64,000 bases of DNA from Candidatus Woesebacteria bacterium UBA1430 (GTDB lineage: Bacteria; Patescibacteriota; Microgenomatia; UBA8517), in contig DCTW01000004.1 of assembly GCA_002329465.1 (NCBI GenBank), forward strand, positions 66,933-130,932, read 5' to 3'. How positions within the stretch are numbered: position 1 is the stretch's first letter; every line of letters starts with the position of its first letter. The notes beneath the pieces were generated by a model. That model saw only the letters and a program-made list of their open reading frames with translations, was not told where the DNA came from and made no database searches. The translations under genes were made by a program, and so were the position numbers. Below, piece after piece: positions 727 to 59,588 of the stretch.

Positions 727-1116
727 CTAATTATAATCAAAAAACCTCTCCAAAATCAACGAGGCAGAATATGCATCCAAAAAATTTCTCCTTTTTTTCC
801 TACTCTTTCCGGCTTTAATAGCCTTATCCAAAGCCTCAACACTACTTAAAGTCTCATCAACAAGATGAACTTTTTTACCGCTTTTACGCTTTAGTAAATT
901 AGCAAACTCCCTTTGTTTCACACTCATCTCGCCCTCGGATACGCCCACCACAATCTCATCAATTTTTTTTTCTTTTATAATTCCTGTTATCTTTGCGATA
1001 AGCTCTAAATCATCTTTATGCTCCAACACGCAATAAGGCTCTCCAAACTTCCCAAAAGACAAAGCCACACCCGTTCTTTTCTTACCATAATCAATGCCCA
1101 AATAATTTCTCATCAT
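727..1116 (-). CDS. ruvX: Holliday-junction resolvase-like nuclease YqgF/RuvX
   Basis: N-terminal LGIDYGKKRTGVALS motif, about 130 aa, C-terminal DAYSASLILERF. ATGATGA overlap with the sortase stop. Confidence 0.85.
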   Translation of the reverse strand: MMRNYLGIDYGKKRTGVALSFGKFGEPYCVLEHKDDLELIAKITGIIKEKKIDEIVVGVSEGEMSVKQREFANLLKRKSGKKVHLVDETLSSVEALDKAIKAGKSRKKRRNFLDAYSASLILERFFDYN

Positions 1117-1781
1117 ATCCTCTCGCCAAAAGGAACAACTCTTGCACGCACAATCAATCTTTTAGGACGAAGCGGATGCCCAGGCGGCACGCAGGTTACA
1201 AGCGTTAAAAACGAATCGCTTGTATTCTGCTCAAGTATCTGAATGTCAGTAGGCAGCACCTCAAACGAACTTTCCACTTTATATTCATAAGTAATCCCGT
1301 CATGTTCAATAAAAATAGAATCATTCTTCTTAATAGTAGGTAAGGTCGAAAATATTGTAAGATAATCCTCGGGATTAAAAAATTGCGGAAGCACCGAATG
1401 CCCAAATACCACGGCATTGCCACGCCTACCCGGATAAGCAGTGCCTGGATACTGTACCAACGACTTAGACAAATCCTCCCCGCCTATCGAAACAGTTGCA
1501 TTCTTTATGTCCAATGAAGGTATTGATAAAGTATAATATTTAGCACTTGCTTCATCAAAATTCGTTTCTTTCAAGGGCAACCAGTTGCTTGCTTTTGTAA
1601 AATCGACAGCTTGCCTGCTAGGTTCAAGGCCCTGTCCTTCAGGAACCGGAGACAAATAAGTAGGATATTTTAAACTACTTACTATCTCATAAGAAAAAAT
1701 AGGATATAAAACATAAAAAAGCAAACCAATCCCGGATAAAAAAGACACTATTCCCAAAAACCTTATTGACTTTTTCTTCAT
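1113..1781 (-). CDS. Sortase family transpeptidase with N-terminal TM anchor
   Basis: Catalytic His (VVFGHS), Cys in TLVTC (FLTLVTCVPPG) and Arg (RLIVRAR). The track start at 1787 is TTG; the ATG is at 1781, 2 nt after the orf728 stop. Confidence 0.85.
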   Translation of the reverse strand: MKKKSIRFLGIVSFLSGIGLLFYVLYPIFSYEIVSSLKYPTYLSPVPEGQGLEPSRQAVDFTKASNWLPLKETNFDEASAKYYTLSIPSLDIKNATVSIGGEDLSKSLVQYPGTAYPGRRGNAVVFGHSVLPQFFNPEDYLTIFSTLPTIKKNDSIFIEHDGITYEYKVESSFEVLPTDIQILEQNTSDSFLTLVTCVPPGHPLRPKRLIVRARVVPFGERI

Positions 1782-1783
1782 CT

Positions 1784-3970
1784 TCAAACATTTCTATCGG
1801 CTATTGTCTCTATATTTATATTCTTATGCATCCTTGGGATAACTCCAAAAATCCAAGGAAATTTGTACTTTACACTAATCTCGGAACGCGTAAACCCGGG
1901 TATCGTCTCCAAATATTCATTAACCCTATCAAAACTTTTACCGGCTATATTTTTCTTTATCTCATCAGGTTCCACTCGCGGAAGAAGATTTGCTTTAATA
2001 GTAACATCAAAATCCCAATAAGAAGACCCAGAGCCTTGAAAAGAATAACTTATATTAAGCTGTTCCTCTTTCAAAGTATATCCCTCAGGCACTTGAGACT
2101 CAAGCCGTCTTTTTGAGAGCTCATTCATAGCGCTCTTTGAAATTACCAGTCCTTCAAGCTTCAGAGTCATCAATAGCTCCACGCTCCCGCTCTCCTCTCC
2201 CACCTCGTGACTATACTCTTCTGACACAATTTCGTACTCAAAAGCCTCGTCCTCTTCAATAAAAATCTTATCTTTCCCTATTTGTCCACTAATTTTATCC
2301 ATACCCTGTTTTTTAAGCTCATCTATAAGATCCTCCTTTAACTTATCGATATCGTCTTGTGATACCGCCACAATATCTTTGCTCGAGCCACCGCTGAAAT
2401 CTTCTTTCGCCACAGCATCAACCTCGCTTTTGGGATAATTACCAACCGAAAAAGATTCGTCTTTTGCAAGATTGTATTCTGCGCCAATATCTTCTGCAGT
2501 AACATTTATATCATCAGTTCCGGGTGACGAGGGACTCTCGGCAGCAGAAACCGACGCCGACTCGTCCAAACTAAACTTTAGTTCTCCCGGGCCAACCAAA
2601 ACAGTCCCCTCAGAAAGCTTAATAGAGGATGAGGTTCCGTTTCTAACTATTACAACACCCTTTGCCTTATCGCCAACCGTCTTAGTCCCGCTTGCATCTT
2701 TTGTTTTTTCTCCGCTAACCTCAACGGTTACAATCTCGGCAGGCAACAAAAATTCATCATAATTAGCCTGAGCCAAATCCTTCTCAAAAGTAACGCCGAC
2801 ACTCTCTGAAAGAAGCTTTGGAGAAACAAAAACAACAACATTAGCCTTCGGCAAAAACCACCAAGCCGCAAAGAACCCTATAATACCCAAAACCAATACA
2901 ATAAATAAAATCCTGCCAAAACCTCCAAAAGGCAGCACCTTCCTAGGAAAACTTCGGAATCTTAAAACAGGTTTTCTAAACCTCGGCAAATGGATAAAAC
3001 CTGCAACTCTTTTTAAAAAACCCTTTTTCTTTTCAGGCACATACTCCTGCTCCGCACCCGCTTCTTCAGGCTCAACAGTTGTTTTTTTTATTTTCGATAC
3101 ATCACCACCAAAAACAAATCCTACATCCCGTGGATCAACCGAGTTTATTTCGGAAAAATTCATCTCATTGCTGCCTTCAACATCCTCCTCGGCTTGTAAA
3201 TTCTCATTCTCTTCATTTTCCGCTTTCGCAAGACCTTCTATCTCTCCGAATTCGGATGCTCCTGCAAGACAAACCGCTGTTAATTTTTTCTCTGGAGGAA
3301 ATATCTCAATCTTAGGAGTATGTAAAAATTTCACTTTACCCGCACTCTTTTCAGACCAATCTACATCAATAATAAGCTGCCTTGCTTCCTCAAGCTCGGC
3401 TTCTTTTCCATTGTAAATAATTATTCTTGAAGGAAAATTCTCGCCTGTATAAAACCTTGCAAGCCCCTCGATAACATCATCTGCAAAAGAAACACTTCTT
3501 CCGATATTTACAGTACCTGCAATATTTCCAAGCTTAAACAAAGTTACATCAAGCATTTCCTTGCCATAACCGATTACAATCCCGGAAAACGGTGTTCCCT
3601 CATCAAGCTTAATCGCATGAGAAATTGCCTCTGGTAAAACCACAAAACCCGATGGCTCCAAAGAAAGTTTCGAACACACCTCTTTTATCTTCTCCAAATA
3701 CTCTTTTTTAATCTGCCCATCAGAAACCCAAAAAGGAGCCACACCAAAAACAGTCTTACTTGGCTCAATCAATTCTTCTGGATAATTCTGTGAAGCGGAC
3801 GAAAGCGCTGAATTACATGCCTCAACAAGCTCGGTATCATCACCCCAGGCAACAGAAGAACTAGTAATCATTACTTTTGCCCGCCTTTCTTCTATTGTCC
3901 AAATTGCAGCTTGAACCCACCCTGGTTCAATTACAAGCGACCAATAATATTCTTGTTTTTTGCTATCCAT
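1784..3970 (-). CDS. Hypothetical 728-aa bitopic envelope protein: N-terminal degenerate actin/FtsA/PilM-like region, acidic linker, one TM (ILFIVLVLGIIGFFAAWWFLP), large extracytoplasmic C-terminal domain
   Basis: Long uninterrupted ORF. The N-terminus WSLVIEPGWVQAAIW...GIVIGYGKEMLDVTLFKLG...VNIGRSV resembles FtsA/PilM strand patterns, but the phosphate-binding Asp/Gly motifs are replaced. The fold assignment is inference only. Confidence 0.6.
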   Translation of the reverse strand: MDSKKQEYYWSLVIEPGWVQAAIWTIEERRAKVMITSSSVAWGDDTELVEACNSALSSASQNYPEELIEPSKTVFGVAPFWVSDGQIKKEYLEKIKEVCSKLSLEPSGFVVLPEAISHAIKLDEGTPFSGIVIGYGKEMLDVTLFKLGNIAGTVNIGRSVSFADDVIEGLARFYTGENFPSRIIIYNGKEAELEEARQLIIDVDWSEKSAGKVKFLHTPKIEIFPPEKKLTAVCLAGASEFGEIEGLAKAENEENENLQAEEDVEGSNEMNFSEINSVDPRDVGFVFGGDVSKIKKTTVEPEEAGAEQEYVPEKKKGFLKRVAGFIHLPRFRKPVLRFRSFPRKVLPFGGFGRILFIVLVLGIIGFFAAWWFLPKANVVVFVSPKLLSESVGVTFEKDLAQANYDEFLLPAEIVTVEVSGEKTKDASGTKTVGDKAKGVVIVRNGTSSSIKLSEGTVLVGPGELKFSLDESASVSAAESPSSPGTDDINVTAEDIGAEYNLAKDESFSVGNYPKSEVDAVAKEDFSGGSSKDIVAVSQDDIDKLKEDLIDELKKQGMDKISGQIGKDKIFIEEDEAFEYEIVSEEYSHEVGEESGSVELLMTLKLEGLVISKSAMNELSKRRLESQVPEGYTLKEEQLNISYSFQGSGSSYWDFDVTIKANLLPRVEPDEIKKNIAGKSFDRVNEYLETIPGFTRSEISVKYKFPWIFGVIPRMHKNINIETIADRNV

Positions 3971-18599: not shown

Positions 18600-18974
18600 T
18601 CACTCATCAGAAGAAAAATAAAGATCTCTCAAACCACTTCCAATCTTAAAACCATAACATTCTAAATTTTCTAAAAGCCTGGCTACTTTTTCCCTTCCAA
18701 CATCTCCGGGAAAAGTACCTGAGTCTTTCGAAATTCTTTTGATTTCACCTCCCTGGGCATCTATTACCAACCCGCCTTTTACTTTTGCACTCTTATCAAT
18801 CAAATCTGCTCTTTGCGCTTCTAGCAAAATCCTCTCGTGCATTGGTCCATTCTCATAAGAATTAGCTCCCCAAATAATTAAATCAGCCCCACCTGTTCCC
18901 ACTACGAGTGAAGAAATTCCTCGCAACCTATCAATTGAAGCGCCATCGTCAAAAACTCTCTCAACCCTACTCAA
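18600..18974 (-). CDS. Hypothetical 124-aa soluble protein inserted between dnaK and dnaJ
   Basis: The only long ORF in a 367-nt stretch of an otherwise gapless genome. TTG start embedded in the dnaK stop context (GTTGAGTAG). I recognise no motif. Confidence 0.5.
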
Positions 18975-22093: not shown

Positions 22094-23824
22094 TCAAAAT
22101 TCCGTATTATCCTTTGCAGAAGGGGATACTGTTTCGGATTCTCGAAGAGGTGGAGAAGATATCTTTTTTCTCCTTTTAATAAGGCTTGTTAAAGTAAACA
22201 GTTCCTGCGATTTCAGTAAATAACTTGCCAAAAAGTAAAAAACACCACCCACAAAAAAGGTTACCAAAGTAAGAATTAATAAATTTGTAGTATATCGGGT
22301 ATCCAATACAAATTTCTCAAAATCAAGTCTTTTATGCGCATCCAAACTCCCCAAAAAAGACAGTCGCTTAACCCAAACCGATCTATCAAAAAACTTGAGA
22401 ATAAAGTACATCACTCCGCTTGATACCAAACTTGAAACAACCGTCTTGAAAAAAGGATATAAATTTATCAAAACTCCACCGTTTATCCTATTGCTCAATA
22501 TATAAAAAAGTACAATGGATTGAACAATTACCCCCGACGAAAAGGATGCGGACAGTGCCCAAGTTGGAAGGTCTAAAAGCAGTATCCCGATAAAAGAAAA
22601 AATAATTGCAATTGTCGTACCAATAAGAGAAATAAAAACAGGAGTTTTTGTGTCATTTAGCGCATAAAACGCCCTATTAAGAAGCATTACGGCAGCTTGA
22701 AAAGGAACTCCCAATGCAAAAGCGGATAAAACAAGCCCTGTCTGTACAGTAGCCTCCCAATCAAAAATATCCGTGCCAAATAACAATCTGACAATTGGTA
22801 TTCGAAACACAATCAACCCACCCGCGATAGGCATCACTAAAAAAACCACCTGATACAAAGTCGAGAGAAAAGTGCTTTTAAATCTGGCGAGATCATCCGA
22901 CTGACTGGTCAGAGTAGGAAGCGCAGCTTTTGCCAAACTCACGCCAAAAAGTCCCACAGGTATAAGTTGCACGGAATTTGCAAGAGTGTAATAAGTATAC
23001 GATGCGGTAGAAATAAGAGAGGCCAAAAAAAGCTCTACAGTTTTCGAAATCTGCAAAACCGAAAGCTCAAATATCCTAGGCATCGCAAGCCTACCAATCT
23101 TTTTTACTTCTTTTGTAGGTCTTAACGAAATCTCAAACCTAAACCCAAGCTTATATGACAAAGGAAGCTGTATTAAAAAGTGAGCAAATGCACCCATAAG
23201 TACGCCCAGCGAAGGAGCAAGAAGATGAAATCTGCTCGAAAAAAGCACGGTTCCCGCTATAATTCCGAGATTATAAAAAAGAGGAGCCAGCGCCGGGATC
23301 AAAAATCGTCTTAATGACTCCAAAACTCCGGTTAAAACATAGCTAATTACAAAAAACCCCTGAGCGGCAAACAAAACTCGTGCCAAATATCCAATCTTCT
23401 CCGTTTGCTCTGAACTAAACCCTGGAGCCACTATCCTATATAAATCTTCGGCAAATATACCAAACACTATGGATATCAGGGCAAATATCAAAAGCCCAAG
23501 ATTAAGCATCCTTCCAGCAGTTTTCCAAGCAAGCTGCTGATCTTTCTTAAAAAGTTTTGTAAAAACAGGTATAAAAGCACTAGATAAGGTACCCAGCGTA
23601 AGCACCTCAAACACAAGGTCGGGAAATCTAAACGCAGCAAAAAAAAGGCTAAGCTCATCCGGAACAAAAAAACTCAAAAGCACCCTTTGTCTAACTAACC
23701 CCAAAATCTTTGAAAAGACAATCATCACCATAATAATGCTCGCGGCAGAAAGTATCGAAGTCTGCTCAGAAAAAATAAGTCTTTTACCCCTCAAAACAAT
23801 TCCTCTTGGTATTTTTATTATCAT
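22094..23824 (-). CDS. murJ: Lipid II flippase MurJ/MviN
   Basis: 576-aa polytopic protein. N-terminus AASIIMVMIVFSKILGLVRQRVLLSFFG-like, FRFPDLVFE, and the MOP-superfamily pattern throughout. Confidence 0.88.
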   Translation of the reverse strand: MIIKIPRGIVLRGKRLIFSEQTSILSAASIIMVMIVFSKILGLVRQRVLLSFFVPDELSLFFAAFRFPDLVFEVLTLGTLSSAFIPVFTKLFKKDQQLAWKTAGRMLNLGLLIFALISIVFGIFAEDLYRIVAPGFSSEQTEKIGYLARVLFAAQGFFVISYVLTGVLESLRRFLIPALAPLFYNLGIIAGTVLFSSRFHLLAPSLGVLMGAFAHFLIQLPLSYKLGFRFEISLRPTKEVKKIGRLAMPRIFELSVLQISKTVELFLASLISTASYTYYTLANSVQLIPVGLFGVSLAKAALPTLTSQSDDLARFKSTFLSTLYQVVFLVMPIAGGLIVFRIPIVRLLFGTDIFDWEATVQTGLVLSAFALGVPFQAAVMLLNRAFYALNDTKTPVFISLIGTTIAIIFSFIGILLLDLPTWALSASFSSGVIVQSIVLFYILSNRINGGVLINLYPFFKTVVSSLVSSGVMYFILKFFDRSVWVKRLSFLGSLDAHKRLDFEKFVLDTRYTTNLLILTLVTFFVGGVFYFLASYLLKSQELFTLTSLIKRRKKISSPPLRESETVSPSAKDNTEF

Positions 23825-23902: not shown

Positions 23903-24151
23903 ATGCCTATAACAAAAACAGCCAAAAGAGCTCTCAGAAGCTCAAAAAGAAAAACAAAAATAAACAAAAAAATAATATCCTCAATGGAGGCTTCGTTACG
24001 CATTGCTAAAAAAAGCAAAAAGGTAAAAGATATCTCAAAAGCAATATCCCAAGCCGATAAAGCCGCTAAAAAGAAAATAATTCACAAAAACAAAGCGTCC
24101 CGCATCAAAAGCACTCTCTCCAAACTTCAAATCTCTAAAAAACAAAAATAA
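23903..24151 (+). CDS. rpsT: 30S ribosomal protein S20
   Basis: MPITKTAKRALRSSKRKTKINK...; 82 aa, highly basic helical protein. Confidence 0.9.
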   Translation: MPITKTAKRALRSSKRKTKINKKIISSMEASLRIAKKSKKVKDISKAISQADKAAKKKIIHKNKASRIKSTLSKLQISKKQK

Positions 24152-24211
24152 TCTACCAGAGCGGGCTTACTCTGTGTTATATTTACATAAAGCACAAAGA
24201 AAGCAAAGGAT

Positions 24212-24784
24212 ATGCCTGTCCGTTCTAAAAAAAGACAAATAAATCTTCTCCCACAAAGCGAATTCGAATCATCGCCAACGGGACGAGTGTTAAAATGGAT
24301 TCTAACAACATTTAGGTTCATAGTTATATTTGTAGAATTAATAGTTATAATGGGCTTTATTGCACGCTTCTGGCTAGATATTAAACACTCAAACCTAAAC
24401 GACGAAATAGAACAAAAAGAAAATCTAATAAAGTCTTACTCCAATTTTGAAAAAGAGTTTAAGCTTACCCAGAAAAAACTCGCCATCTATAAATTTCTAA
24501 ACGACGAGAAATATAAACCAGCACCAAGCTTGGAAAAAATAGTCAAAAGGCTGCCGCAAGAAATAACGCTTACTTCCTATTCCAAAAAACCCGAGGAAAT
24601 AATAATTAAAGGACAAAGCCTGGGGGAACAAAACATATCTCAATTCGTAGCAAACTTAAAAGCCGAAGGCGAATTTGAAAACATCACAATCTCTCAAATA
24701 GAATCAAACGAAGAATCTATCTTTATAGATTTTACAATCAATATTAGCCCAATATTTTCGGAAAACGCAGAAAATGAAACTTAG
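24212..24784 (+). CDS. pilN: Type IV pilus assembly protein PilN-like
   Basis: N-terminal QINLLP motif, one TM, a coiled coil, then an alpha/beta domain. AAGGA SD upstream. Confidence 0.65.
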   Translation: MPVRSKKRQINLLPQSEFESSPTGRVLKWILTTFRFIVIFVELIVIMGFIARFWLDIKHSNLNDEIEQKENLIKSYSNFEKEFKLTQKKLAIYKFLNDEKYKPAPSLEKIVKRLPQEITLTSYSKKPEEIIIKGQSLGEQNISQFVANLKAEGEFENITISQIESNEESIFIDFTINISPIFSENAENET

Positions 24785-24797
24785 TTAAAATAAAAAA

Positions 24798-25463
24798 ATG
24801 AAACAAACAAAGTGGCAGCAAAACTACGAAGTTTACAAAAAGTATCTAAGAAACGTCGCTACGCTTTATAAAAGCCGGCAAGACCTAAAAATGTTTACCG
24901 AGCTTTTGCTTTCGATGGCAACCGTAATAACCTTCGGACTTTTTGCAATTAAACCCACTCTTGTAACAATAGCCAAACTATATAGACAAATGACCGAAAA
25001 AGAAGAAACAATAAAAACAATGGATCAAAAAATAAGCAATCTCGTAAAGGCAAAAGAGCTCTACGACTCTCAAACCCAAAGCATCAATCTCCTAAACGAA
25101 GCAGTCCCTACCGAACCCGAAGTTCACAAGTTTGTTAGACAAATCGAAGGTTTATCACAAAAAAACGGGGTAAATCTAATCGAATTTTCAATATCTGACG
25201 CCACCATTATCGGCAGAAAAGATACACAAGAAGAACTCGATGATAATTTAGTAATCATTCCTGAAGACGCACAAAACATTCCCGTCATAATAGGAGCAAC
25301 CGGGGATTATTCCTCTCTCTTTTCATTTATTTCCGATCTTCAGATACTAAAAAGACCAGTCTTTTTTGATATATCATTAGTAAGCATCTCTAATGAAGAA
25401 ACAGCTTTTTCTCTTACCGCAAACATAACAGGAAGAATAGTTTATATAAATAAAAATGAATAA
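24798..25463 (+). CDS. pilO: Type IV pilus assembly protein PilO-like
   Basis: Short cytoplasmic head, one TM, a coiled coil, then LNEAVPTEPEVHKFVRQIEGLSQKNGVNLIEFSI, which is typical of PilO. Confidence 0.55.
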   Translation: MKQTKWQQNYEVYKKYLRNVATLYKSRQDLKMFTELLLSMATVITFGLFAIKPTLVTIAKLYRQMTEKEETIKTMDQKISNLVKAKELYDSQTQSINLLNEAVPTEPEVHKFVRQIEGLSQKNGVNLIEFSISDATIIGRKDTQEELDDNLVIIPEDAQNIPVIIGATGDYSSLFSFISDLQILKRPVFFDISLVSISNEETAFSLTANITGRIVYINKNE

Positions 25464-25791
25464 AAAAAACTCGCCCACCATAGTCAAGCTAGGAATTCTT
25501 ACTGTAATAACAACCTTTATCTGGATAGGTTTCGAGGTCTATAGAGCATTAAGTACCGAGCCCGAACCGATCGTATCCGAAGAAACACTCGCAAAAGTCG
25601 AACCAAACTTGGATACTAATGAAATGGACTCACTCCAACAAAGAATATACATAAACGAGGAAAACATAGCACCCATAAACATTGTTTCAAACACGCAAAC
25701 ATCACAAGAAGAACAAGAAGAAAATGCAGTTGAATCCGAAGAAGCAACAAATTCTGCACAAGAACAAATAGAGGAATCGGCAAATGAATAA
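25456..25791 (+). CDS. Small bitopic protein with acidic C-terminal tail, unknown function
   Basis: 111 aa with one TM (LGILTVITTFIWIGFEV). 8-nt overlaps with both neighbours, so it is co-translated with pilO and orf457. Confidence 0.45.
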   Translation: MNKKNSPTIVKLGILTVITTFIWIGFEVYRALSTEPEPIVSEETLAKVEPNLDTNEMDSLQQRIYINEENIAPINIVSNTQTSQEEQEENAVESEEATNSAQEQIEESANE

Positions 25792-27157
25792 ATCAAAAAT
25801 TCCCACAATATTAGGCATACTAATACTTATTACCGGAGTTGCCATGGGCGTTTTCATACTTCAGCAACAACAAACTTTTAAACTGGGGGCATCTCCCGAG
25901 GCATCTCCCAAAAACATAGAAATAACCAATATAACAAGCGAGTCATTTACAGTTTCCTGGACCACGGACAAAAAAACTGTAGGCTATCTCAAATGGGGCA
26001 AGGAAAAGCCTAGCGAAAATAACTCATATCAAGCCGAAAAAACGGCAAAAAACATACATCAAATATCACTTCACAACCTCGAGCCAAACACAAACTATTC
26101 CTTTATAATCAACTCGGACGGCAAAGACCACGATAACAACAATATTCCCTGGCAGGTAAAAACAGGCCCACCGCTTCCTCCTCCCCAAAAAACAAACATT
26201 ATCTCAGGAAAAGTCATACTTCCAACTGGACAACCCGCATCAAATACACTTATATATCTAAACGCAGCTGGTATATCACCGCTATCAACGCTAACCTCCT
26301 CAAATGGTGACTGGGTTATAGCAATATCAAACGCAAGATCAAACTCACTTAATTCATATGCGAACATCGATGAAAACACGCTTCTTGAAATTCTTGTTCA
26401 AGGAGGACCAAGTGGAATTGCCTCAGCACAAATTTATTTAAAAGCCGCAAATCCAACTCCACCGATAACCCTCGGGAAAATCCACGACTTTAGATCGGAA
26501 ACAGGAAACCCCCAAGAAGAAATCCCCGCATCGCAAATAAATCTTCCGGAGGAAACGGAAAAAGATATCGAATCAAAATTCGTCGTCCCGGAAGTTGAAA
26601 AAGAAGAAGAAACAAGCTCGGTTACCCTAGATAGCATCGAAGATAACGAAATAATATTCACAAACGACCCGGAATTCTTTGGAAAAGGCCCATCAGGAAA
26701 CTCAATTAAAATAACTGTTGAATCAGAACTCATAAGCGACGAGTTAACAATCCCCAGCTCGGGTGCATGGAAATGGAGCCCGCCTGAAAACTTGGAGCCC
26801 GGAGAGCACAAAATAACCCTCTCCTGGGTTGATAAAACAGGAATATTAAGAACACTCACAAGAACTTTTATAGTTCAAGCTGCGGAAAGCGAACCTGCAT
26901 TTGAATCTACACCGTCAGGCAACGAACCTTCGCCAACCCCCACCGTCAAACCAACGCAAACTCCCAAACCTACAGCAACAGCCACACCCGTATCTACAGC
27001 TACACCCAAAGCAACCGCCTCACCAACAAGTACCCCCAGAGTTAGTATCCCGTCAACCGATTCGGCTACGCCAATAGCAGGAAACCCCATACCAACAATA
27101 ATAATGCTTTCATTCGGAGCCGTATTTCTATTCTTAGGACTCTTTCTGGCAGTTTAA
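25784..27157 (+). CDS. Multidomain surface protein: signal anchor, FN3-like domain, CarboxypepD_reg-like domain, Ig-like domain, Pro/Thr-rich stalk, C-terminal sorting-signal-like TM
   Basis: ITNITSESFTVSWTTDKKTVGYLKWG...LEPNTNYSF (FN3), ISGKVILPTGQPASNTLIYLN...SSNGDWVI, a PTPTVKPTQTPKPTATATP stalk, and the end TPIAGNPIPTIIMLSFGAVFLFLGLFLAV. Confidence 0.7.
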   Translation: MNKSKIPTILGILILITGVAMGVFILQQQQTFKLGASPEASPKNIEITNITSESFTVSWTTDKKTVGYLKWGKEKPSENNSYQAEKTAKNIHQISLHNLEPNTNYSFIINSDGKDHDNNNIPWQVKTGPPLPPPQKTNIISGKVILPTGQPASNTLIYLNAAGISPLSTLTSSNGDWVIAISNARSNSLNSYANIDENTLLEILVQGGPSGIASAQIYLKAANPTPPITLGKIHDFRSETGNPQEEIPASQINLPEETEKDIESKFVVPEVEKEEETSSVTLDSIEDNEIIFTNDPEFFGKGPSGNSIKITVESELISDELTIPSSGAWKWSPPENLEPGEHKITLSWVDKTGILRTLTRTFIVQAAESEPAFESTPSGNEPSPTPTVKPTQTPKPTATATPVSTATPKATASPTSTPRVSIPSTDSATPIAGNPIPTIIMLSFGAVFLFLGLFLAV

Positions 27158-27184: not shown

Positions 27185-29644
27185 TTATCGCCAAGACTCT
27201 ATCCAATAATAACTCTCATTAATCCATCGTGGAACAAAAATTCCTGTCCAGTGTGGATAAAAATACAAAAAAGCCAGCGCTCCAAGGAAAAAAAATACAA
27301 AAACATACTTAGGTCTCATTCGTAAAAAAACACCTATACCCATCGAAAGAAATGGAATAGAAGGCAAATAATGATAAAAAAACATTATTCTTGGGGAAAA
27401 AGCCCAAGGTACAAAAAACACTAAATAAGATAGCACAACAAATCCTAATCTTTTACTTTTAGTCCTAAACGAATAAAAAGAAAGGAAAGCAATACTTAAA
27501 AGCCCAAACCAAACAACAACAGGATTGCCCATCGCATAAATATTTGATACTAATCCAGAATCATTCGAACCCGTATAAAGCCAAACAGGCCTAATAAGCA
27601 AAGGCCAGCTCCACCATGGCGAAGTGTACGCGTGCTCCGCCTCCAAATTGGTGTGGTACCACCACATCTGCTTTTGCATGCCAGTAAATATACTAAAATC
27701 ATGTCCCGTCAAAAACATTGGGATGTAACTAGCAACATAAAGGGTAGCCGGAATCAATAAATACCAAAAATAACCTAAAGAAAATTTCTTTTTAAAAGAA
27801 AAGTGAGCAACGACAAGAAGCGGAAAAAACCAAAAAGCCGTCCATTTCGACGCTAAAGAAAATCCAAAAGCTAAAGATGAAAAAAAGTACTTTGATCTTA
27901 AAAACATATATAAACTCAAGAGCATAAAAAACAAAAAATAAATATCGTTCATCCCAATCCTGCTCATAACCAAAAACAGCCCCTCAAGCGAAAGCGCACC
28001 CACCGAAAAAAGCGCCGTCTTTCTATCCTTAAATATTTCATAAGAAATAAAATAAACCAGTATTCCCGCTCCGACCCCGAAAATAGCAGCAGGCACTCTA
28101 TAGCCATAAGAACTCTCACCCATAAAATGCATCCCCACGGCCATAATTTCCTTCGCCAACGGCGGGTGAGTCCATTCGTAAGCAAACCCTTCAGGGTGAG
28201 GGTTCCACCACTCCCAAGCCTTAGGATCACCATGAAGTATAAGCTTTGCAGTAAAAGCATGATAAATCTCATCAAAATACTCATGCTTCGGAAGGCCAAT
28301 CCCGTAAATTCTCGAGACCAAAAGAAACAAAGTCATCGCTATCAATACTCGCTTAGCCCTTCTTGAATCAAGATCCTTTCCCTTAAAAAGGGTAGTTTTT
28401 ACAGCTCCCCCGCGCTCTTTAAATAAGCCTGACAAATTCTTAACATCAAAGTCTCCAAAACTCTCCCTCATTAAAGAAAAAACAAAAAGGAAAATACTAC
28501 ACAACGAAAAAAGGATAATTGCGGGTGCATTAAACACCTCTCTAAAGCCGTCGGTTATCCAAACGTAAGAATAATAAAGGTTCACAACATATAAAAAAGA
28601 AAGCCCCACATAAACAATCATCAAAAAAGGGTTAAACGCAACGGCTATAAGCAAAGGGGCAATAACAGGCAAAAGATGTCTCTCGTGCATTCGTGTCATA
28701 AAAAGATATAAAGTAAAAAACACAATCGAAGCGTAATAATATTTATCTTTTTCAACCAGCAAAGAACTCCTCCTCCAAGCTTTATAAAAAATACCCGAAA
28801 GAATAATAAAACTAATAAAATAACCTATTAAAAAAGGAGGGATAATCCCGCTTGTGTCACTTTTCCAAAATCCAAAAATACTCCAAAAATTAATAGCGTT
28901 TACACTTGTATAAGGATACTGTCCCAAAGACAAAAACACCCGCCGAAAAACAAACTCAACCAAATTCCCCGATGAAAAGGGAATAAACATCATAAAGAAA
29001 AAAATAGCAGAAGATAAAATATATAAAAACATATTTTTAACTATCCATTTCTTCTTCCAAAAAACAAATAAAATAATGGGTAGGATAAACAAAGTCTGGG
29101 GTTTAACCAGCACTCCATAAGAAAACAAAACACTTGATACAAAAAACGAACTCTTATCTAAAAAGTACAAAGCTGCAATCGAAAAAAACGAAGTAAGCGA
29201 ATCCACCTGTCCCCACAAAGAAGAATTTGCAAAAACCGCCGGATTAAAAATATAAAAACTTGCGACGATTAAAGAAAAATTCTTACTTTTGTATCTTCTG
29301 ACGATTTTATAAATCAAATAACCGGTTGCTATATCGGCAATTATCGCAGGCAGTTTATAAATTAAATGGGGATCTAAAAAACTAAACCAAACGCTTATTT
29401 TTCCCAAAAAATAAAGCACATAAAGATATCCGGGCAAGTAATCAGACCAGCCGTTATAAAATTCGCTAAATCCATGCTCCGAAAGCGTTCTGCTCCAGGA
29501 AACAAAAGTATTAAAATCAAGCTCTAAAGTACCAAAAGGCGAAAGAAAAATTCTCAACAAAAACCCAACAGCAAGAAAAAATAATATTTCATATTCTAAT
29601 TTTTTCATTTTACTAACCATGGCTTTATACATAATATAACCCAT
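27185..29644 (-). CDS. Fused double GT-C glycosyltransferase: N-terminal DUF2029/PIG-V-like mannosyltransferase module plus C-terminal GT39 (PMT-type, polyprenyl-phosphate-sugar dependent) module
   Basis: The C-terminal half has YFDEIYHAFTA...WTHPPLAKEIMAVG...YRVPAAIFG...MSRIGMNDIY (bacterial Pmt pattern). The N-terminal half has about 11 TMs with WSDYLPGYLYVLY. The track start 29755 would overlap the receiver gene; in-frame Met codons lie at 29644, 29632, 29620 and 29608. Confidence 0.82.
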   Translation of the reverse strand: MGYIMYKAMVSKMKKLEYEILFFLAVGFLLRIFLSPFGTLELDFNTFVSWSRTLSEHGFSEFYNGWSDYLPGYLYVLYFLGKISVWFSFLDPHLIYKLPAIIADIATGYLIYKIVRRYKSKNFSLIVASFYIFNPAVFANSSLWGQVDSLTSFFSIAALYFLDKSSFFVSSVLFSYGVLVKPQTLFILPIILFVFWKKKWIVKNMFLYILSSAIFFFMMFIPFSSGNLVEFVFRRVFLSLGQYPYTSVNAINFWSIFGFWKSDTSGIIPPFLIGYFISFIILSGIFYKAWRRSSLLVEKDKYYYASIVFFTLYLFMTRMHERHLLPVIAPLLIAVAFNPFLMIVYVGLSFLYVVNLYYSYVWITDGFREVFNAPAIILFSLCSIFLFVFSLMRESFGDFDVKNLSGLFKERGGAVKTTLFKGKDLDSRRAKRVLIAMTLFLLVSRIYGIGLPKHEYFDEIYHAFTAKLILHGDPKAWEWWNPHPEGFAYEWTHPPLAKEIMAVGMHFMGESSYGYRVPAAIFGVGAGILVYFISYEIFKDRKTALFSVGALSLEGLFLVMSRIGMNDIYFLFFMLLSLYMFLRSKYFFSSLAFGFSLASKWTAFWFFPLLVVAHFSFKKKFSLGYFWYLLIPATLYVASYIPMFLTGHDFSIFTGMQKQMWWYHTNLEAEHAYTSPWWSWPLLIRPVWLYTGSNDSGLVSNIYAMGNPVVVWFGLLSIAFLSFYSFRTKSKRLGFVVLSYLVFFVPWAFSPRIMFFYHYLPSIPFLSMGIGVFLRMRPKYVFVFFFLGALAFLYFYPHWTGIFVPRWINESYYWIESWR

Positions 29645-29679
29645 ACTGACCACTTGGACTATATAATATAATAAATAAA

Positions 29680-30072
29680 GTGGACACAAACCCAAAAAAC
29701 CCAACGGTGTTAATAATAGAAGACGATCAAGCCCTGGCAAAAATGTATTCGACAAAATTCCAAATGGAAGGCTTCAACTCAATAGTTGCAAAAGACGGTA
29801 AAAGCGGTATGGATTTTCTAAATACAAAAAGCCCTGACGCGATACTTCTCGACATCATGCTTCCCGGATATTCGGGATTGGATCTTCTCTCAAGCCTCCA
29901 ATCAAACCCCAAAGCCAAAAATACTGTTATATTAGCGCTCACAAATCACCCTCAAAAAGAAAGCGCTCAAAAAGCACTAAACCTCGGAGTAAAAGAATAT
30001 CTTGTAAAAGCAATGCAAACACCCGAAGAAGTAGTAGAAAAAGTCAAAAAATACCTAAATCTTCCACAATGA
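29680..30072 (+). CDS. Stand-alone response-regulator receiver domain (CheY-like)
   Basis: VLIIEDD, phospho-acceptor context AILLDIMLPGYSG, ILALTN, EYLVKA. All five conserved receiver positions are present. GTG start. ATGA overlap with the next gene. Confidence 0.85.
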   Translation: MDTNPKNPTVLIIEDDQALAKMYSTKFQMEGFNSIVAKDGKSGMDFLNTKSPDAILLDIMLPGYSGLDLLSSLQSNPKAKNTVILALTNHPQKESAQKALNLGVKEYLVKAMQTPEEVVEKVKKYLNLPQ

Positions 30073-31226
30073 GTCTTCAGGCCAAAACAAAACTGCCGTA
30101 TATCATTTTTATTTTTACTTTTTTAATCTATCTATTAACCTCAGGAGGCAACACTCCCTATAACTACTTTGTACTTTTCGCAGAAAGTTTCACAAAAGGC
30201 AAATACTGGATCGAGTCGGCGCCACCCTGGCTAAACGAACTCGTACCCACCGGCAGGGGACGCTACTATCTTGTCTATCCGCCAATGCCTTCTATCCTTC
30301 TTATGCCCTTCGTTCTATTCTTCGGCACCGCCTTTCCACAACAAATTCTGGCACACCTGTTGGGAGCTGGTTCAGTAACCTTAACATACCAAATAGCTCA
30401 AAAAAAACTGAAGTCGGCAAAAAAAGCACTTTGGGTATCCACGCTGACGGGATTTGGAACAATCATATGGTTTCTCTCAGCTACAGGCTCCGCCTGGTAT
30501 TTGGGACAAATATCAGCGTATTTTTTTGTAACGGCTGCAATTTACGAAACCGTCTCAAAAAAACGCCCAATTGCAATAGGGCTTTTCCTGGGAGCAGCCT
30601 ATCTTTCACGACTCCAAACTATACTTACTCTGCCTCTTATACTTTACCTTACCAATAAAGAAAGATTTAGTACTTGGCCAAAAATTTTAATCATACTAAG
30701 TATTTTTCTATCAATAAACTTCGGGTATAATTTCATTCGCTTCGGATCAATTCTTGATAAAGCATATATACTAATCCCGGGCGTTTTGAATGAACACTGG
30801 TACTCCAAAGGTCTTTTCCACCCAAGCTACATACCAAGACATATCAAAACAATTCTGCTGGAATTGCCCAAATTCTCAAAAAACCCTCCATTCATATGGC
30901 CGTCATGGGCCGGACTTGCTATTTGGATCACAACACCCGCATTTATATTTTCTCTATTCGCACCTCTCAAAAAAGCCGAGGTGGCTTTTTCTTGGCTGGT
31001 AATTTTTCTAGTATCAGCAGTAATATTTATGCACGGAACAGTAGGGTTCAGTCAATTCGGATACCGCTTTGCTGTCGACTTCTATCCGGTACTAATTTTT
31101 TTAATCATCATCTATCTTAAAAAAACAAATCTAAACTTCATCCACTGGACTCTTCTTACAATTTCGGTAATAGTTAACACATGGGGAGTACTGTGGATAA
31201 ACAAATTTGGCTGGGTATCCTTCTAA
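30069..31226 (+). CDS. GT-C fold membrane glycosyltransferase (ArnT/PMT_2-like)
   Basis: 385 aa with about 10 TMs; YYLVYPPMPSILLMPF loop motif. Translationally coupled to the receiver gene. Confidence 0.65.
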   Translation: MSLQAKTKLPYIIFIFTFLIYLLTSGGNTPYNYFVLFAESFTKGKYWIESAPPWLNELVPTGRGRYYLVYPPMPSILLMPFVLFFGTAFPQQILAHLLGAGSVTLTYQIAQKKLKSAKKALWVSTLTGFGTIIWFLSATGSAWYLGQISAYFFVTAAIYETVSKKRPIAIGLFLGAAYLSRLQTILTLPLILYLTNKERFSTWPKILIILSIFLSINFGYNFIRFGSILDKAYILIPGVLNEHWYSKGLFHPSYIPRHIKTILLELPKFSKNPPFIWPSWAGLAIWITTPAFIFSLFAPLKKAEVAFSWLVIFLVSAVIFMHGTVGFSQFGYRFAVDFYPVLIFLIIIYLKKTNLNFIHWTLLTISVIVNTWGVLWINKFGWVSF

Positions 31227-32608
31227 TACCTGCCTCTTTGGCGCTATATTCCTTAACTTTACTAAAAGACGTCGGCTTTTGGGACACGGCAGAATTCCAA
31301 ACCATCCTCTACACGCTCGACATCGCACACCCCACAGGCTACCCCACTTACATACTTTTAGGAAAACTGTTTCTTATTTTACTCCCGCTAAAAAATGTAG
31401 CACTTCAAATCAATTTTCTCTCAAGCATCCTTATATCTCTAGGATTATACTTTATTTCAAATTCAATATTCACAATCACCAAAAACAAATATGTCTCAAT
31501 ACTCACACCCTTTTTAATAATGACTTCCTCCGTTGTTTGGTCGCTCTCAACAGCTGCAGACCCTCACGCACTCCACTTTCTTTTTACATCTCTTTTTATA
31601 TATCTCTCCACCAAAATATTAATCCAAAATAGAACAAATTTTCTGCCAACTATTTTTCTTATTACAGGGCTATCGCTCGGAAATCACTTATTATCAATAT
31701 TTTTCTTATTGCCTCTTTTTTTAATTCTGGCAACAAAAGCCAAAAAAGCCCGGCCTTTTATAATAAAATCAATTCTTTTATTCTTTCTTGGTCTAAGCGT
31801 CTATGCGCTACTGCCGATAATTTCTTACTTTAAACCTCCCCTAACTACCGATTATTCTATAAACAGTCTTGATTCCTTTAGCCGCCACGTTTTCGGCAAA
31901 GATTTTAGTCCCCACTCCGGAAAATGGATCGGAGGAAGCGTGCTTTCAGCCCTTCAATTTTATTCGATTCAACTAAAACAATTTATCTCAATCGTTTTTC
32001 TGCCTCTTGCTTTAATTGGAATTGTCTCTCTTAAAAAAGAAAATCGCATTCTAAACTTTTCTCTATCATTTATTTTTCTCGGTACACTCCTTTTCAGCCT
32101 TAGATATCAAAACGCCGTTATAGAAAGATATTTCGCACCCTCTTTTGTTGTTATTCTTATCTGGATATCCTCATCAATCAACCCAATTTTACGTCTCTCT
32201 AAAAAATTCAAATTTATAGCTCTCCTTAGTTTTATACTTATTATCACAGTCCAAACAACAAAAAACATAAAAACAGTCTTTCCCTTAGTAAAACAAAACG
32301 GGTCAAACTCAGCGCGCACTTTTGCCGAAAAAACCATGGATCTGCTTCCGAAAAATTCGGCAATTATCTCTTGGTGGAGTTATTCTACACCGCTTTGGTA
32401 TCTACAAAAAGTCGAAGGAAAAAGGCAAGACGTTTTAATAATTAACGCGTCACAAAACGAATGGGAACAAATTGCGCTTAATCTTTATTCAAAAAAAGAA
32501 ATTTTCTTAATCAATTACATCGATCTTAAAAACCCTTCCTTTAAACTAATACACAAAGAGCACCTCTATCAATTTACTCCCCTGTCTTATGAGAATTCTC
32601 CCCAATAA
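31181..32608 (+). CDS. DUF2723 (TMEM260-like) GT-C glycosyltransferase
   Basis: GFWDTAEFQTILYTLDIAHPTGYPTYILLGKLF is the hallmark DUF2723 N-terminal loop. Polytopic, followed by a soluble C-terminal domain. Confidence 0.75.
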   Translation: MGSTVDKQIWLGILLIPASLALYSLTLLKDVGFWDTAEFQTILYTLDIAHPTGYPTYILLGKLFLILLPLKNVALQINFLSSILISLGLYFISNSIFTITKNKYVSILTPFLIMTSSVVWSLSTAADPHALHFLFTSLFIYLSTKILIQNRTNFLPTIFLITGLSLGNHLLSIFFLLPLFLILATKAKKARPFIIKSILLFFLGLSVYALLPIISYFKPPLTTDYSINSLDSFSRHVFGKDFSPHSGKWIGGSVLSALQFYSIQLKQFISIVFLPLALIGIVSLKKENRILNFSLSFIFLGTLLFSLRYQNAVIERYFAPSFVVILIWISSSINPILRLSKKFKFIALLSFILIITVQTTKNIKTVFPLVKQNGSNSARTFAEKTMDLLPKNSAIISWWSYSTPLWYLQKVEGKRQDVLIINASQNEWEQIALNLYSKKEIFLINYIDLKNPSFKLIHKEHLYQFTPLSYENSPQ

Positions 32609-33686
32609 TCTTGCCAACCCACTCATGCATTCCGCTCCAATCTCCAGCGATGGGAACTAAAACATACAAATTATTATAATCAGAAAATGGCGGGTTTTTA
32701 AGTAAACTTTCCTCAAAATCATGCATCTTTATCTTATCCCTAAAATCATAAGCTTTCCGCGCCAAAAAAACCTGGGCATATTCATCCATATCAGTCTCCG
32801 AAATAGATTTTATTAAATCCCAAAAACCAAAAAGTTTCCGCGGATGATACAAAAAATCACGACTTACTAACTTATCTTTAATCGCCACCATCACAAGCTG
32901 TGCACGTCTTGTCCTTGCAAAATCAGTGCCTTCTTCCAAATCCTCCGAATGCCTCGAACGCACATACTTTAAAGCAGTACCTCCATCCATGGTTGTCAGC
33001 CCTTTTTCAAACCTTATCGTCTCATACCGGCAAGCATACTCAGGGTCTCCATCACACAAATCTTCCCCTCTCCCCTCGATGGGATATTTTTTATCTTCAA
33101 AGCTCCTTGGTACGTCAACTTCCACCCCACCCAAATAATCAACGACCTCTTTAAATCCGTCAAAATTCATAGAAAAACCGTAATGAATAGGTATTCCCAA
33201 TATCTCCTCAACATAAGACTTGGCAAGAACAATTCCACCACCCGCCCTTCTTTCATTACCTATGCGATAAGCTCCATTAAGCTTGTCTCCAAGCTCCTCA
33301 ATCCATATATCACGAGGAACAGGTATTAAATCCACGCCAGAGCCGTAAATATCAAAAGAAGCAACTATCATAGTATCTGATAAAATTGGATTTTTTTCTC
33401 CGTCACCCGATAAGCCGAGAAAAAGCAAATTAGTTCTTCCGTCTGTAGATTTTACTTTTTTATTACTTGCAAAAATAAATGTAAAGCCCAATTCAGCGTA
33501 TTTATAATAACCGCTGAATTTCAGAAAAAAAACACCCACAGCCACAAAAAGGCTCAAAAAAACAAATATAGATAAAAAAACGCCGAAACGAACAAACAAA
33601 ATATGTCTTGCCAAAATTCTTCTTTTTACTCTCGCCAAAAACCTTTTCCTTCTCTCTGATAAAAATTTATGCCTTCTTTTTTCCAT
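32574..33686 (-). CDS. LytR-CpsA-Psr (LCP) family glycopolymer-to-peptidoglycan phosphotransferase
   Basis: N-terminal TM; TNLLFLGLSG...SDTMIVASFD...VDLIPVPRDIWI; RSRH...DFARTRRAQ. The ATG is at 33686 (the track start 33710 is TTG). The 3' end overlaps the DUF2723 gene convergently by 35 nt. Confidence 0.85.
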   Translation of the reverse strand: MEKRRHKFLSERRKRFLARVKRRILARHILFVRFGVFLSIFVFLSLFVAVGVFFLKFSGYYKYAELGFTFIFASNKKVKSTDGRTNLLFLGLSGDGEKNPILSDTMIVASFDIYGSGVDLIPVPRDIWIEELGDKLNGAYRIGNERRAGGGIVLAKSYVEEILGIPIHYGFSMNFDGFKEVVDYLGGVEVDVPRSFEDKKYPIEGRGEDLCDGDPEYACRYETIRFEKGLTTMDGGTALKYVRSRHSEDLEEGTDFARTRRAQLVMVAIKDKLVSRDFLYHPRKLFGFWDLIKSISETDMDEYAQVFLARKAYDFRDKIKMHDFEESLLKNPPFSDYNNLYVLVPIAGDWSGMHEWVGKIIGENSHKTGE

Positions 33687-33742
33687 GTTAGAATAAGTCT
33701 TGCAAAACAAAAACGCTTTTAATTATTGTATTTTATACCAAA

Positions 33743-35605: not shown

Positions 35606-35616
35606 AAAATTAATGC

Positions 35617-35625: not shown

Positions 35626-35631
35626 AAGCTC

Positions 35632-58219: not shown

Positions 58220-59059
58220 ATGGATCAACCTGTCCAAGATAATAACGCATCATCTACAAATCCACAAAACGGACCGATATTTACACCCAATCCGGAAGCA
58301 ACACAACCATCCACCGATTCCACGACCGCTCCCCAAAGCCCGCCCCAACAAAATAGCGATCCTGTCAACATAGTAACATCAGAACCACCACAATCAGGCA
58401 ACGGAAACGGCAAAAAGGCTATATTTGCAATAGCAGGAATTACGGTTTTAATAACAGGTCTTGTTACAGGAGTCTTCCTTATAGGAAGAACCAACCTCAG
58501 AAAAAGCAGCGCGTGGGATTGTAGTGGCTATACTTTTAAACTGGAAAAAACAGGAGAAGTTATAGCAAGCAATCTTTCTGCCTATAACGAACCTCCCCAA
58601 CAAGCAAGAGTTATTATAAATTCCCAAGAAGTAGCAGTTTTTGATGTACCGGCATTAGCCTCGGGAGACACAGCCTCTCTCGGTAATGTTCAACCTCCAA
58701 CTGGTAGCTATAGCTGGGAAATAGTAGGCACTGTTGACTGCAGCAATTCAGGCTCCCACGAACAAGAAATTACGGCACGATGCGAAATCATCAAAGCATA
58801 CGACACCGAAGGCAACCTTCTCAACTTGGACGAGCTAAGCGCACTTCCAGGGGGAAGTACGGTAAGATTTACTGTTTTGGGAAGTACAAGCGAAGGAATT
58901 TTTGATAAAGCAAAATTTATCATTAACGACAGCCCACAAGAAGTAACTAATAAAAACGAATCTGGCGAATTCTACATAGATTACCAAATTCCCGAAGGCA
59001 CAAACACCATAAAAGTTGATGCCCAAGTCCACCACTCGACACTAGACAATTGGTACTAA
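58220..59059 (+). CDS. Bitopic surface protein: Q/P/T-rich N-terminus, one TM, Cys-containing beta-rich ectodomain
   Basis: ORF; TM at AIFAIAGITVLITGLVTGVFLIG; four Cys in the ectodomain. Confidence 0.55.
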   Translation: MDQPVQDNNASSTNPQNGPIFTPNPEATQPSTDSTTAPQSPPQQNSDPVNIVTSEPPQSGNGNGKKAIFAIAGITVLITGLVTGVFLIGRTNLRKSSAWDCSGYTFKLEKTGEVIASNLSAYNEPPQQARVIINSQEVAVFDVPALASGDTASLGNVQPPTGSYSWEIVGTVDCSNSGSHEQEITARCEIIKAYDTEGNLLNLDELSALPGGSTVRFTVLGSTSEGIFDKAKFIINDSPQEVTNKNESGEFYIDYQIPEGTNTIKVDAQVHHSTLDNWY

Positions 59060-59060: not shown

Positions 59061-59588
59061 ATGAAATATATAAAACAAAACTTATTTACAATCTTAATAG
59101 TATTAGCAACAGTTATTCTTGCCGTTATTGCCGTATTTACAGCTATAAAACTCTATACAGGCGAGCAAAAACCACAAGCTCCGACAGCGCCGCAAAGCGT
59201 TCCTGAAGCAAAAGTAGAAACACAAAACACCCAATGCCAATCGCTGGTATTTACTCTGTCAACCCCCACAGCCACTCCAACAGCTACTCCCGAGGCAACA
59301 CCAAGCCCATCAGCCACACCAAAAGAAACCTCTACACCGTCTCCTACGCCGACATCTACACCCGAAGAAACATCTACTCCGTCACCGTCTCCTACTCCTA
59401 CTTCTACATCAACGCCGTCAGGAACATCAACTCCCGCGCCGACATCTACACCCACAGATACGCCGGCAACCGCGACTCCCACACCCACCCAAGAAGCCAT
59501 GCCGGCTGCTGGCGTAGCATTACCAACGATTATCGGAGTAAGCGCGGGTGTAATTCTAATCCTTGGAGCACTTCTCTTGGCTCTATAA
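59061..59588 (+). CDS. Thr/Pro-rich stalk surface protein with signal anchor and C-terminal sorting-signal-like TM
   Basis: N-terminal TM, about 80 residues of (T/S/A/E)P repeats, and the end MPAAGVALPTIIGVSAGVILILGALLLAL. Confidence 0.6.
   Translation: MKYIKQNLFTILIVLATVILAVIAVFTAIKLYTGEQKPQAPTAPQSVPEAKVETQNTQCQSLVFTLSTPTATPTATPEATPSPSATPKETSTPSPTPTSTPEETSTPSPSPTPTSTSTPSGTSTPAPTSTPTDTPATATPTPTQEAMPAAGVALPTIIGVSAGVILILGALLLAL

Follow-up and report, generated by a model that had tools for sequence, protein, structure and literature searches.

In this work, we examined a stretch of 64,000 nucleotides (hereafter the window) from Candidatus Woesebacteria bacterium UBA1430 (contig DCTW01000004.1), an ultra-small bacterium of the Microgenomates group (Patescibacteria), and in particular an operon in which two genes of the type IVa pilus (T4aP) machinery, pilN and pilO, are followed by two conserved partners not previously described in the literature; indeed, full-text literature searches returned no description of this module. 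The operon is read from the + strand and consists of pilN (24212..24784, 190 aa), pilO (24798..25463, 221 aa), orf111 (25456..25791), coding for a small bitopic acidic protein delineated by a family alignment and a hidden Markov model (HMM), and orf457 (25784..27157), coding for an FN3/Ig-type surface protein recognized by its FN3, CarboxypepD_reg and Big_13 matches in Pfam and by an AlphaFold2 model. The pilO/orf111 and orf111/orf457 junctions each consist of an 8-nt overlap with the identical octamer ATGAATAA, and a Shine-Dalgarno-like GAGGA stands 5′ of the orf457 start codon. The ORF coordinates and both overlaps match exactly those of an original prediction made from the sequence alone, and the four genes are translationally coupled, with stop-start overlaps joining pilO, orf111 and orf457.

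As had also been predicted, pilN is preceded by rpsT and not by an adjacent pilM: the gene at 23903..24151 (+ strand) was identified as that of ribosomal protein S20 (Pfam Ribosomal_S20p, E = 2e-7), a conserved 5′ neighbour that adjoins pilN in all relatives examined. The rpsT-pilN spacer measures 60 nt and contains a weak terminator-like hairpin at 24157-24174. A Pfam scan covered all window ORFs of about 100 aa and above without obvious identity, and among these larger ORFs neither PilM, PilB, PilC, PilT and PilD nor a secretin was found, in line with the earlier statement that the window holds no pilM or secretin. Moreover, no type IV prepilin signal motif occurs in the six frames of the window; the search, made for class III motifs and extended to 15 loci (L001-L015), gave a single chance match inside a membrane protein, and no pilus genes were found in the 10 kb beyond the right end of the window.

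Products of the pilN-pilO operon

The profile searches that had been proposed as a check on the PilN and PilO assignments supported both, each protein scoring above its Pfam gathering score. PilN matched PF05137 (E = 2.8e-12; 46.9 bits for a cut-off of 22.8), and the family profile of 19 homologues matched Myxococcus xanthus PilN (PDB 3jc8, E = 7e-8); PilO matched PF04350 (E = 2.6e-6; 28.1 bits for a gathering score of 22). PilN is bitopic: a single transmembrane (TM) segment (aa 26-44) precedes the PilN domain, which is extracytoplasmic (aa 107-177), and the cytoplasmic N-terminus carries the peptide INLLP (aa 10-14, nt 24239-24253), in which N11-L12-L13-P14 is invariant in the 19 homologues. 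The role of this NLLP/INLLP motif in PilM binding was reportedly established by Karuppiah and Derrick in 2011, and in the PDB entry 5eou (‘PilM:PilN1-12’), present among the Foldseek matches of orf728 (see below), PilN(1-12) is the PilM-binding peptide. PilO is likewise bitopic; its single TM segment (aa 32-50) and a coiled-coil region are combined with a globular domain at the C-terminus. Its profile search returned 266 homologues, many of which carry a precomputed PF04350 domain or are named PilO by their sources. The 120 homologues listed of these 266 measure 196-246 aa and include no fusion of PilO with orf111 or orf457 (Rosetta-stone check), and large contigs hold one PilO match each among the 120 listed.

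The third gene had been described as coding for a 111-aa bitopic acidic protein, and the family alignment bears this out: orf111 (pI 4.06) has a basic N-terminus, one N-terminal TM segment with a conserved Trp, and a disordered, acidic and variable tail. After the membrane, it displays the conserved extracytoplasmic motif L-x-P-[LI]-x-P-x-L-D-x3-L-x2-L-x2-R, and its sequence contains neither Cys nor lipobox. No match to orf111 was obtained in Pfam, even at E ≤ 1, or in NCBIfam, which added nothing for PilN, PilO and orf457 either. The orf111 protein represents a real family, since an HMM made from nine loci recognized the third gene of five further loci (E = 1e-18 to 1e-26). We considered orf111 as a PilP (PF04351) and rejected it, given that it has no lipobox Cys and no HR-type beta-sandwich, only the short motif and an acidic low-complexity tail following the TM segment. 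Note that in Saccharibacteria TM7x, an unnamed gene, TM7x_00430, stands between pilO1 and pilB1 in locus one (PMC12206443, supplementary table 3); judged by gene position and not by sequence comparison, it could be a candidate counterpart of orf111.

For orf457, Pfam matches to Pur_ac_phosph_N/fn3, Big_13 and, weakly, CarboxypepD_reg were combined with an AlphaFold2 model obtained from a 67-sequence alignment (pLDDT 81). The protein comprises an N-terminal TM helix (aa 5-27, from the model and its conservation), an FN3 domain (aa 43-126), a second, prealbumin/CarboxypepD_reg-like beta-sandwich (aa 139-235), an acidic linker modelled as disordered (aa 246-275), an Ig-like Big_13 domain with an invariant PEFFGxGP (aa 289-364), a disordered Pro/Thr-rich linker (aa 370-430) and a predicted sorting signal, T-P-I-A-G with a hydrophobic tail (aa 429-457, nt 27068-27154), the latter modelled as a C-terminal helix (aa 435-456). 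The domains and the sorting-signal-like tail announced by the original prediction were thus recovered. Throughout the family, the tail reads [LIVT]P-x-[AS]-G-x4-T, followed by a hydrophobic stretch in 67/67 sequences and by basic residues in most, P430 being near-invariant, G433 invariant and T438 (near-)invariant in the alignment. This layout is that of a sortase sorting signal, as predicted from the aligned tails. The window protein ends in TPIAG...LFLAV and has no basic residues after the hydrophobic stretch, as is the case for a few other homologues.

As in LPXTG-type sortase substrates, orf457 combines a C-terminal Pro-x-x-Gly, a hydrophobic stretch and, in most homologues, basic residues, with a Pro/Thr-rich wall-spanning linker ahead of the motif and a sortase encoded in the genome. 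Unlike these substrates, its motif is [LIVT]P-x-[AS]-G, the window protein lacks the basic tail, and its N-terminal hydrophobic segment is conserved as strongly as the folded domains (0.64 versus 0.61-0.69), in contrast to the C-terminal TM segment (0.42). From this conservation, the N-terminal helix would seem to be a specific membrane anchor that stays in place rather than a signal peptide that is removed, and the C-terminal helix a generic, removable signal. The Foldseek search with the orf457 model returned generic FN3/Ig tandems only, without any PilP, PilQ or pilus-related match. The hypothesis of orf457 as a secretin (PilQ/GspD), or as a homologous substitute for it, was rejected, as no secretin, N0, N1 or AMIN domain was found with Pfam, AlphaFold or Foldseek.

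Conservation of the module in relatives

The window proteins are 93-96% identical to those of a complete genome, CP055307.1 (‘Candidatus Woesebacteria bacterium Ch104b’), in which the PilN call (L001 8393-9001) exceeds that of the window by 12 codons. Context searches were seeded by orf457, by PilN in a genome collection (a six-sequence alignment leading to 9 loci) and by PilO through its profile search, which gave 15 distinct genomes in total. Conservation of the four-gene order, set beforehand as a check, was observed in 15/15 of these Microgenomates-type genomes: as far as the contig reaches, the order [murJ, rpsT]-pilN-pilO-small bitopic protein-FN3 protein is intact, even though PilN identity to the window falls to 34%. 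Such strict synteny, found in all 15 distinct genomes, is far beyond chance. The pilO-orf111-orf457 junctions of the relatives show 4-nt overlaps or tiny gaps. In all 15 genomes pilN is preceded by rpsT or murJ, and a pilM-pilN-pilO array was found in none of them. In the more distant group (L011-L014 and L017), murJ is co-directional and directly 5′ of pilN, and the downstream genes are those of a GH18 enzyme and PBP1A, or polysaccharide genes, the four-gene core being still intact. More widely, the region dnaK-grpE-hrcA-murJ-rpsT...PMT-LCP-uvrD-femAB is collinear across relatives.

The label ‘lineage-specific’, given to the two extra proteins in the original prediction, was overstated. Indeed, at E ≤ 1e-3 over 600 homologues of orf457 were obtained, and orf111 is present in every relative, so that, judged by their homologues, both are class-wide Microgenomates families. 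The best 120 orf457 homologues (E < 1e-113, 437-497 aa) are labelled Woesebacteria, Microgenomates or Patescibacteria where named. Note that several of the metagenome-assembled genome records (L008-L015) are titled ‘uncultured Gammaproteobacteria’, ‘Pseudomonadales’ or ‘Candidatus Bathyarchaeia archaeon’ despite their Microgenomates-type synteny; these titles are almost certainly mislabelled taxonomy. In addition, rpsT is replaced by an opposite-strand ORF call of 82-94 aa at L003 8114-8398, L005 4950-5234 and L021 6108-6356.

In at least L003/4, L008, L009 and L010, the orf457 homologue is followed by two more co-directional genes, and, judging from these homologues, the module counts more than four genes in many relatives. 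The fifth gene, always immediately 3′ of the orf457 homologue in these loci, has its window orthologue in orf279 (58220..59059, + strand; phmmer E = 2e-9 to 3e-21 against the same loci), and the sixth is homologous to orf175 (59061..59588, + strand), both being displaced about 31 kb from the module in the window genome. Further co-directional downstream genes without Pfam matches occur in L018, L020 and L021. The orf279 protein, for which Pfam gave no match, starts with a disordered region and ends with a beta-rich domain, and its TM segment resembles that of orf457; phmmer also matched the N-terminal segment of orf457 to the corresponding TM region of the orf279 homologue of a Woesebacteria relative (L003). 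In the orf175 protein, an N-terminal TM segment and a Pro/Thr-rich region are combined with a tail made of M-P-A-A-G and a hydrophobic stretch. When the tails of the window ORFs were scanned, [x]P-x-x-G with a hydrophobic tail appeared in orf457 and orf175 only. The sole sortase found in the window (1113..1787, − strand; Pfam Sortase E = 1e-22; TIGR01076 above cut-off) is a candidate for processing the [LIV]PxxG tails of both proteins. The Woesebacteria homologues of orf279 and orf175 (542 and 294 aa) are strikingly Cys-rich.

Possible roles of the module in the envelope

Combining gene context and structure prediction, we propose, with a probability of about 0.5, that the operon encodes the PilN-PilO pair of a T4aP-like assembly machine, with Microgenomates-wide extracytoplasmic partners that would tether the pair to the wall. 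In such a machine, PilN and PilO would assemble, as usual, into a ring of bitopic heterodimers within the cytoplasmic membrane, and the N-terminal NLLP peptide of PilN would dock a cytoplasmic actin-like PilM encoded elsewhere. The conserved TM segment and the short extracytoplasmic motif of orf111 may bring this protein to PilN-PilO, and orf457 may be held beside the three other proteins in the membrane by its unusually conserved N-terminal helix, while sortase would link its C-terminus to peptidoglycan via the [LIV]PxxG sorting signal. With three beta-sandwich domains and two flexible linkers, orf457 would act as a membrane-to-wall staple or collar, which could hold the pilus machine in place, or guide it, across the wall of a cell devoid of outer membrane, PilP and secretin. 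The operon would then provide concrete class-wide candidates for the wall anchoring or crossing of monoderm type IV pili, namely the small bitopic orf111 and an orf457 potentially membrane-held at one end and peptidoglycan-linked at the other, both translationally coupled to PilN-PilO. The parts list of this machine matters because pili are thought to be central to host attachment and DNA uptake in the Candidate Phyla Radiation (CPR); to our knowledge, there are no Microgenomates in culture.

Surveys indicate that CPR bacteria have PilB/C/T/M/N/O and no PilQ, with PilM widespread and sortase near-ubiquitous in Microgenomates (PMC6744442). Of the Patescibacteria genomes enriched in the 0.1-µm filter fraction, the one that favoured Microgenomates and Woesebacteria, about 88% encode PilC, PilM and PilO, and PilM, PilN and PilO are widespread in CPR surveys (PMC8672522); pilM is also conserved in most Patescibacteria classes (PMC12206443). 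With the PilM-PilN-PilO sub-complex of known T4aP (Myxococcus, Pseudomonas, Thermus, and monoderm Firmicutes such as Streptococcus sanguinis), the window operon shares the profile families, the bitopic topology and the pilN-pilO order. PilN keeps the diderm-type N-terminal INLLP peptide, and, as in monoderm T4aP, the module is devoid of PilP and PilQ. In contrast to T4aP loci, pilM is not adjacent in 15/15 genomes, and no other pilus gene lies nearby. PilMNO are retained in monoderm T4aP machines, whose way of crossing peptidoglycan or anchoring to it is an acknowledged open question; the one answer advanced, speculatively, is that an enlarged PilO (roughly 57 kDa in S. sanguinis) plays a part (PMC6916266). 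PilO here has the canonical size (221 aa), and the separate conserved orf111 and orf457 follow instead.

The original prediction went further and suggested that both extra proteins take over the wall-spanning role of PilP/PilQ. Like PilP-PilQ or GspC-GspD, a small protein (orf111) and then a large one (orf457), both extracytoplasmic, stand in the equivalent positions after pilO, and they could connect the inner-membrane ring to an outer envelope layer. However, they show no PilP or PilQ likeness in sequence or fold: orf111 is without lipobox, Cys or HR domain, and orf457, in which secretin, N0 and AMIN domains are absent, is an FN3/Ig-type string flanked by two TM helices. Because neither protein resembles PilP or PilQ, the takeover is reduced to a positional and functional analogy.

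A degenerate actin-like domain at the N-terminus of orf728 had been singled out as the only actin-like candidate near the operon, and this reading held for the fold, with PilM among the best structural matches, but not for the identity as PilM. The gene (1784..3970, − strand), whose product is at most a candidate docking partner of PilN, lies immediately 5′ of the sortase gene. Its protein starts with a minimal cytoplasmic ASKHA domain (aa 1-250), which a disordered linker connects to a TM segment (about aa 351-372) and then to a Baseplate_J-like ectodomain. In the AlphaFold2 model (pLDDT 85 overall, above 90 over aa 10-250), the N-domain displays twice the pattern beta-beta-beta-alpha-beta-alpha-beta-alpha, i.e., a two-lobed actin-like (ASKHA) fold, for which Foldseek matched Pseudomonas aeruginosa PilM (5eox/5eou; E about 5e-7, TM-score about 0.45) as well as Ppx/GppA, EutJ and FtsA. 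In contrast, aa 1-253 gave no Pfam match at E ≤ 10, none of 35 members of the family matched the PilM, FtsA or GspL profiles, and a PDB profile search with the N-domain returned no PilM, its HIV gp41 matches being judged spurious. As all profile tests for PilM, FtsA and GspL were negative, orf728 was rejected as a PilM (PF11104/TIGR01175). Furthermore, the N-domain has about 250 aa versus about 350 aa in PilM, without inserted subdomain in the secondary-structure map, and, on the model, it appears to be without the subdomain (1C-type insertion) that forms the PilN-binding groove. Thus, orf728 resembles the cytoplasmic domains of PilM, FtsA and GspL by its predicted two-lobed fold, and GspL by its continuation into a TM segment and an extracytoplasmic domain. 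It departs from them by the lack of profile similarity to PilM_2, FtsA and GspL, by TM-scores of about 0.45 that Ppx/GppA and EutJ equal, and by an ectodomain that is Baseplate_J-like and not PilN-like. The family (1252 cluster representatives) is uncharacterised.

Several observations weigh against a pilus function. Neither pilM, pilB, pilC, pilT and pilD nor a pilin gene was found within 10 kb of the module in the 15 genomes or in the 64-kb window, and the constant neighbours are murJ, PMT-type glycosyltransferases, LCP and DUF2298, i.e., a wall and glycan neighbourhood. In addition, neither orf111 nor orf457 resembles a known pilus component in Pfam, NCBIfam or Foldseek, and the motif of the window orf457 is TPIAG, not LPxTG, without basic tail. 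The same lack of pilus genes beside the module, and its unvarying association with murJ, GT-C/PMT glycosyltransferases, LCP and DUF2298, would be explained if PilN and PilO had been co-opted and, instead of serving a pilus, scaffolded another envelope device together with orf111, orf457, orf279 and orf175. This device could be a platform positioning, glycosylating and wall-anchoring surface glycoproteins, or a membrane-to-wall tether tied to the export of peptidoglycan by MurJ. The co-directional murJ directly 5′ of pilN in the more distant relatives, and the two module proteins with sortase-type tails and Pro/Thr-rich linkers, point in this direction, and a precedent exists in the PilMNO homologues reused in a flagellar cage (PMC10823254). 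If true, this would be the second case in which PilMNO-type proteins have been reused for another envelope structure, the flagellar cage being the first. We nevertheless hold it unlikely: the invariant NLLP peptide of PilN argues that a PilM-type partner is retained, the single PilO of each large contig, among the matches listed, means that if pili are made, the pair described here is probably the one used, and PilM, PilN and PilO are widespread in CPR surveys (PMC6744442, PMC8672522).

A conserved order may also exist without any shared function, orf111, orf457, orf279 and orf175 then being ordinary surface proteins, sortase-anchored or membrane-bound, such as adhesins or S-layer-associated glycoproteins. 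Synteny is generally strong here, since the whole region is collinear across relatives, as would befit a streamlined and slowly rearranging genome; Foldseek finds in orf457 the generic FN3/Ig tandems typical of adhesins, and orf279 and orf175 have moved 31 kb in the window genome without obvious consequence. We find this explanation improbable, however, because the stop-start overlaps of the window and the 4-nt overlaps or tiny gaps of the relatives indicate that pilO, orf111 and orf457 are co-translated, because the four-gene core remains intact where its flanks differ (murJ inverted; GH18 and PBP1A, or polysaccharide genes, downstream), and because the N-terminal TM segment of orf457 shows a degree of conservation that does not fit a disposable signal peptide. 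It is far less probable still that the module builds a sortase-assembled pilus or fibre of Gram-positive type, with orf457, orf175 and possibly orf279 as subunits and the PilN/PilO-like pair as the membrane assembly site. The Ig-like and prealbumin-like domains are those found in Gram-positive pilins, and class C, the pilus-polymerising one, is the best NCBIfam subclass for the window sortase, but with a score of 56.7 for a cut-off of 160, far below it, and with class E similar and likewise below its cut-off. Moreover, the sortase lies 22 kb away, outside the module, no pilin motif or E-box turned up (no search being aimed at either), and a conserved N-terminal TM helix with long disordered linkers is atypical of sortase pilins.

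Beyond the PilN-PilO machine preferred above, we put forward, rather doubtfully, a broader hypothesis: in all Microgenomates, PilN and PilO would have become detached from the pilus locus to form the membrane core of an undescribed membrane-to-wall staple complex. Its other members would be orf111, the sortase-linked orf457 and, in most cases, proteins of the orf279 and orf175 families, and its genes would be linked to murJ and to those of GT-C protein glycosyltransferases. This complex would serve either as the missing wall-anchoring and wall-crossing module of monoderm-type type IV pili or in the pilus-independent assembly of a glycoprotein surface layer.

The envelope-biogenesis neighbourhood

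The operon is flanked by genes of wall and glycan metabolism. On its 5′ side, beyond rpsT, lies murJ (22094..23824, − strand), coding for the lipid II flippase; it was identified by Pfam MurJ in the loci of the relatives, it is divergent from the operon in the window, and it is an invariant neighbour of the module. On the 3′ side, convergent with orf457, a PMT-type GT-C glycosyltransferase of 856 aa (27185..29755, − strand) matches Pfam PMT, PMT_2 and PMT_4TMC. Next come a stand-alone response-regulator receiver (29680-30072), which overlaps the PMT gene with its start, a further gene of this conserved envelope-glycosylation neighbourhood (30069-31226), a TMEM260-like gene (31181-32608), homologous to protein O-mannosyltransferases according to Pfam, and an LCP gene (32574-33710; Pfam LytR_cpsA_psr). 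The PMT, TMEM260-like and LCP families also flank the module in relatives. The envelope-biogenesis island (27185-37406) also holds a putative LA_3751/2-like glycosyltransferase and two FemAB-family genes. Altogether, the sortase, LCP, FemAB and MurJ, with no secretin, are consistent with the monoderm-like toolkit that the original prediction had attributed to this organism.

Given that conserved PMT-type and TMEM260-like GT-C genes and LCP adjoin the module, it is plausible that the Pro/Thr linkers of orf457 are O-glycosylated by the neighbouring PMT-type enzymes. In animals, TMEM260 mannosylates Ig-like (IPT) domains, a link that is suggestive in view of the adjacent Ig/FN3 protein orf457.

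Lastly, the strand composition of the window is strongly biased, with 15970 C versus 9240 G on the + strand, i.e., a GC skew of −0.27 that is negative in every 2-kb bin. At the third codon position, the coding-strand GC skew ranges from +0.36 to +0.52 in minus-strand genes and from −0.26 to −0.49 in plus-strand genes; since it changes sign with the gene strand, the bias follows the DNA strand and not transcription. Among the other ORFs of the window, one of 498 aa (45002-46498, + strand) and one of 124 aa located between dnaK and dnaJ (18600-18974, − strand) have no Pfam match, and one of 286 aa (14249-15109, − strand) has neither a Pfam nor an NCBIfam match.

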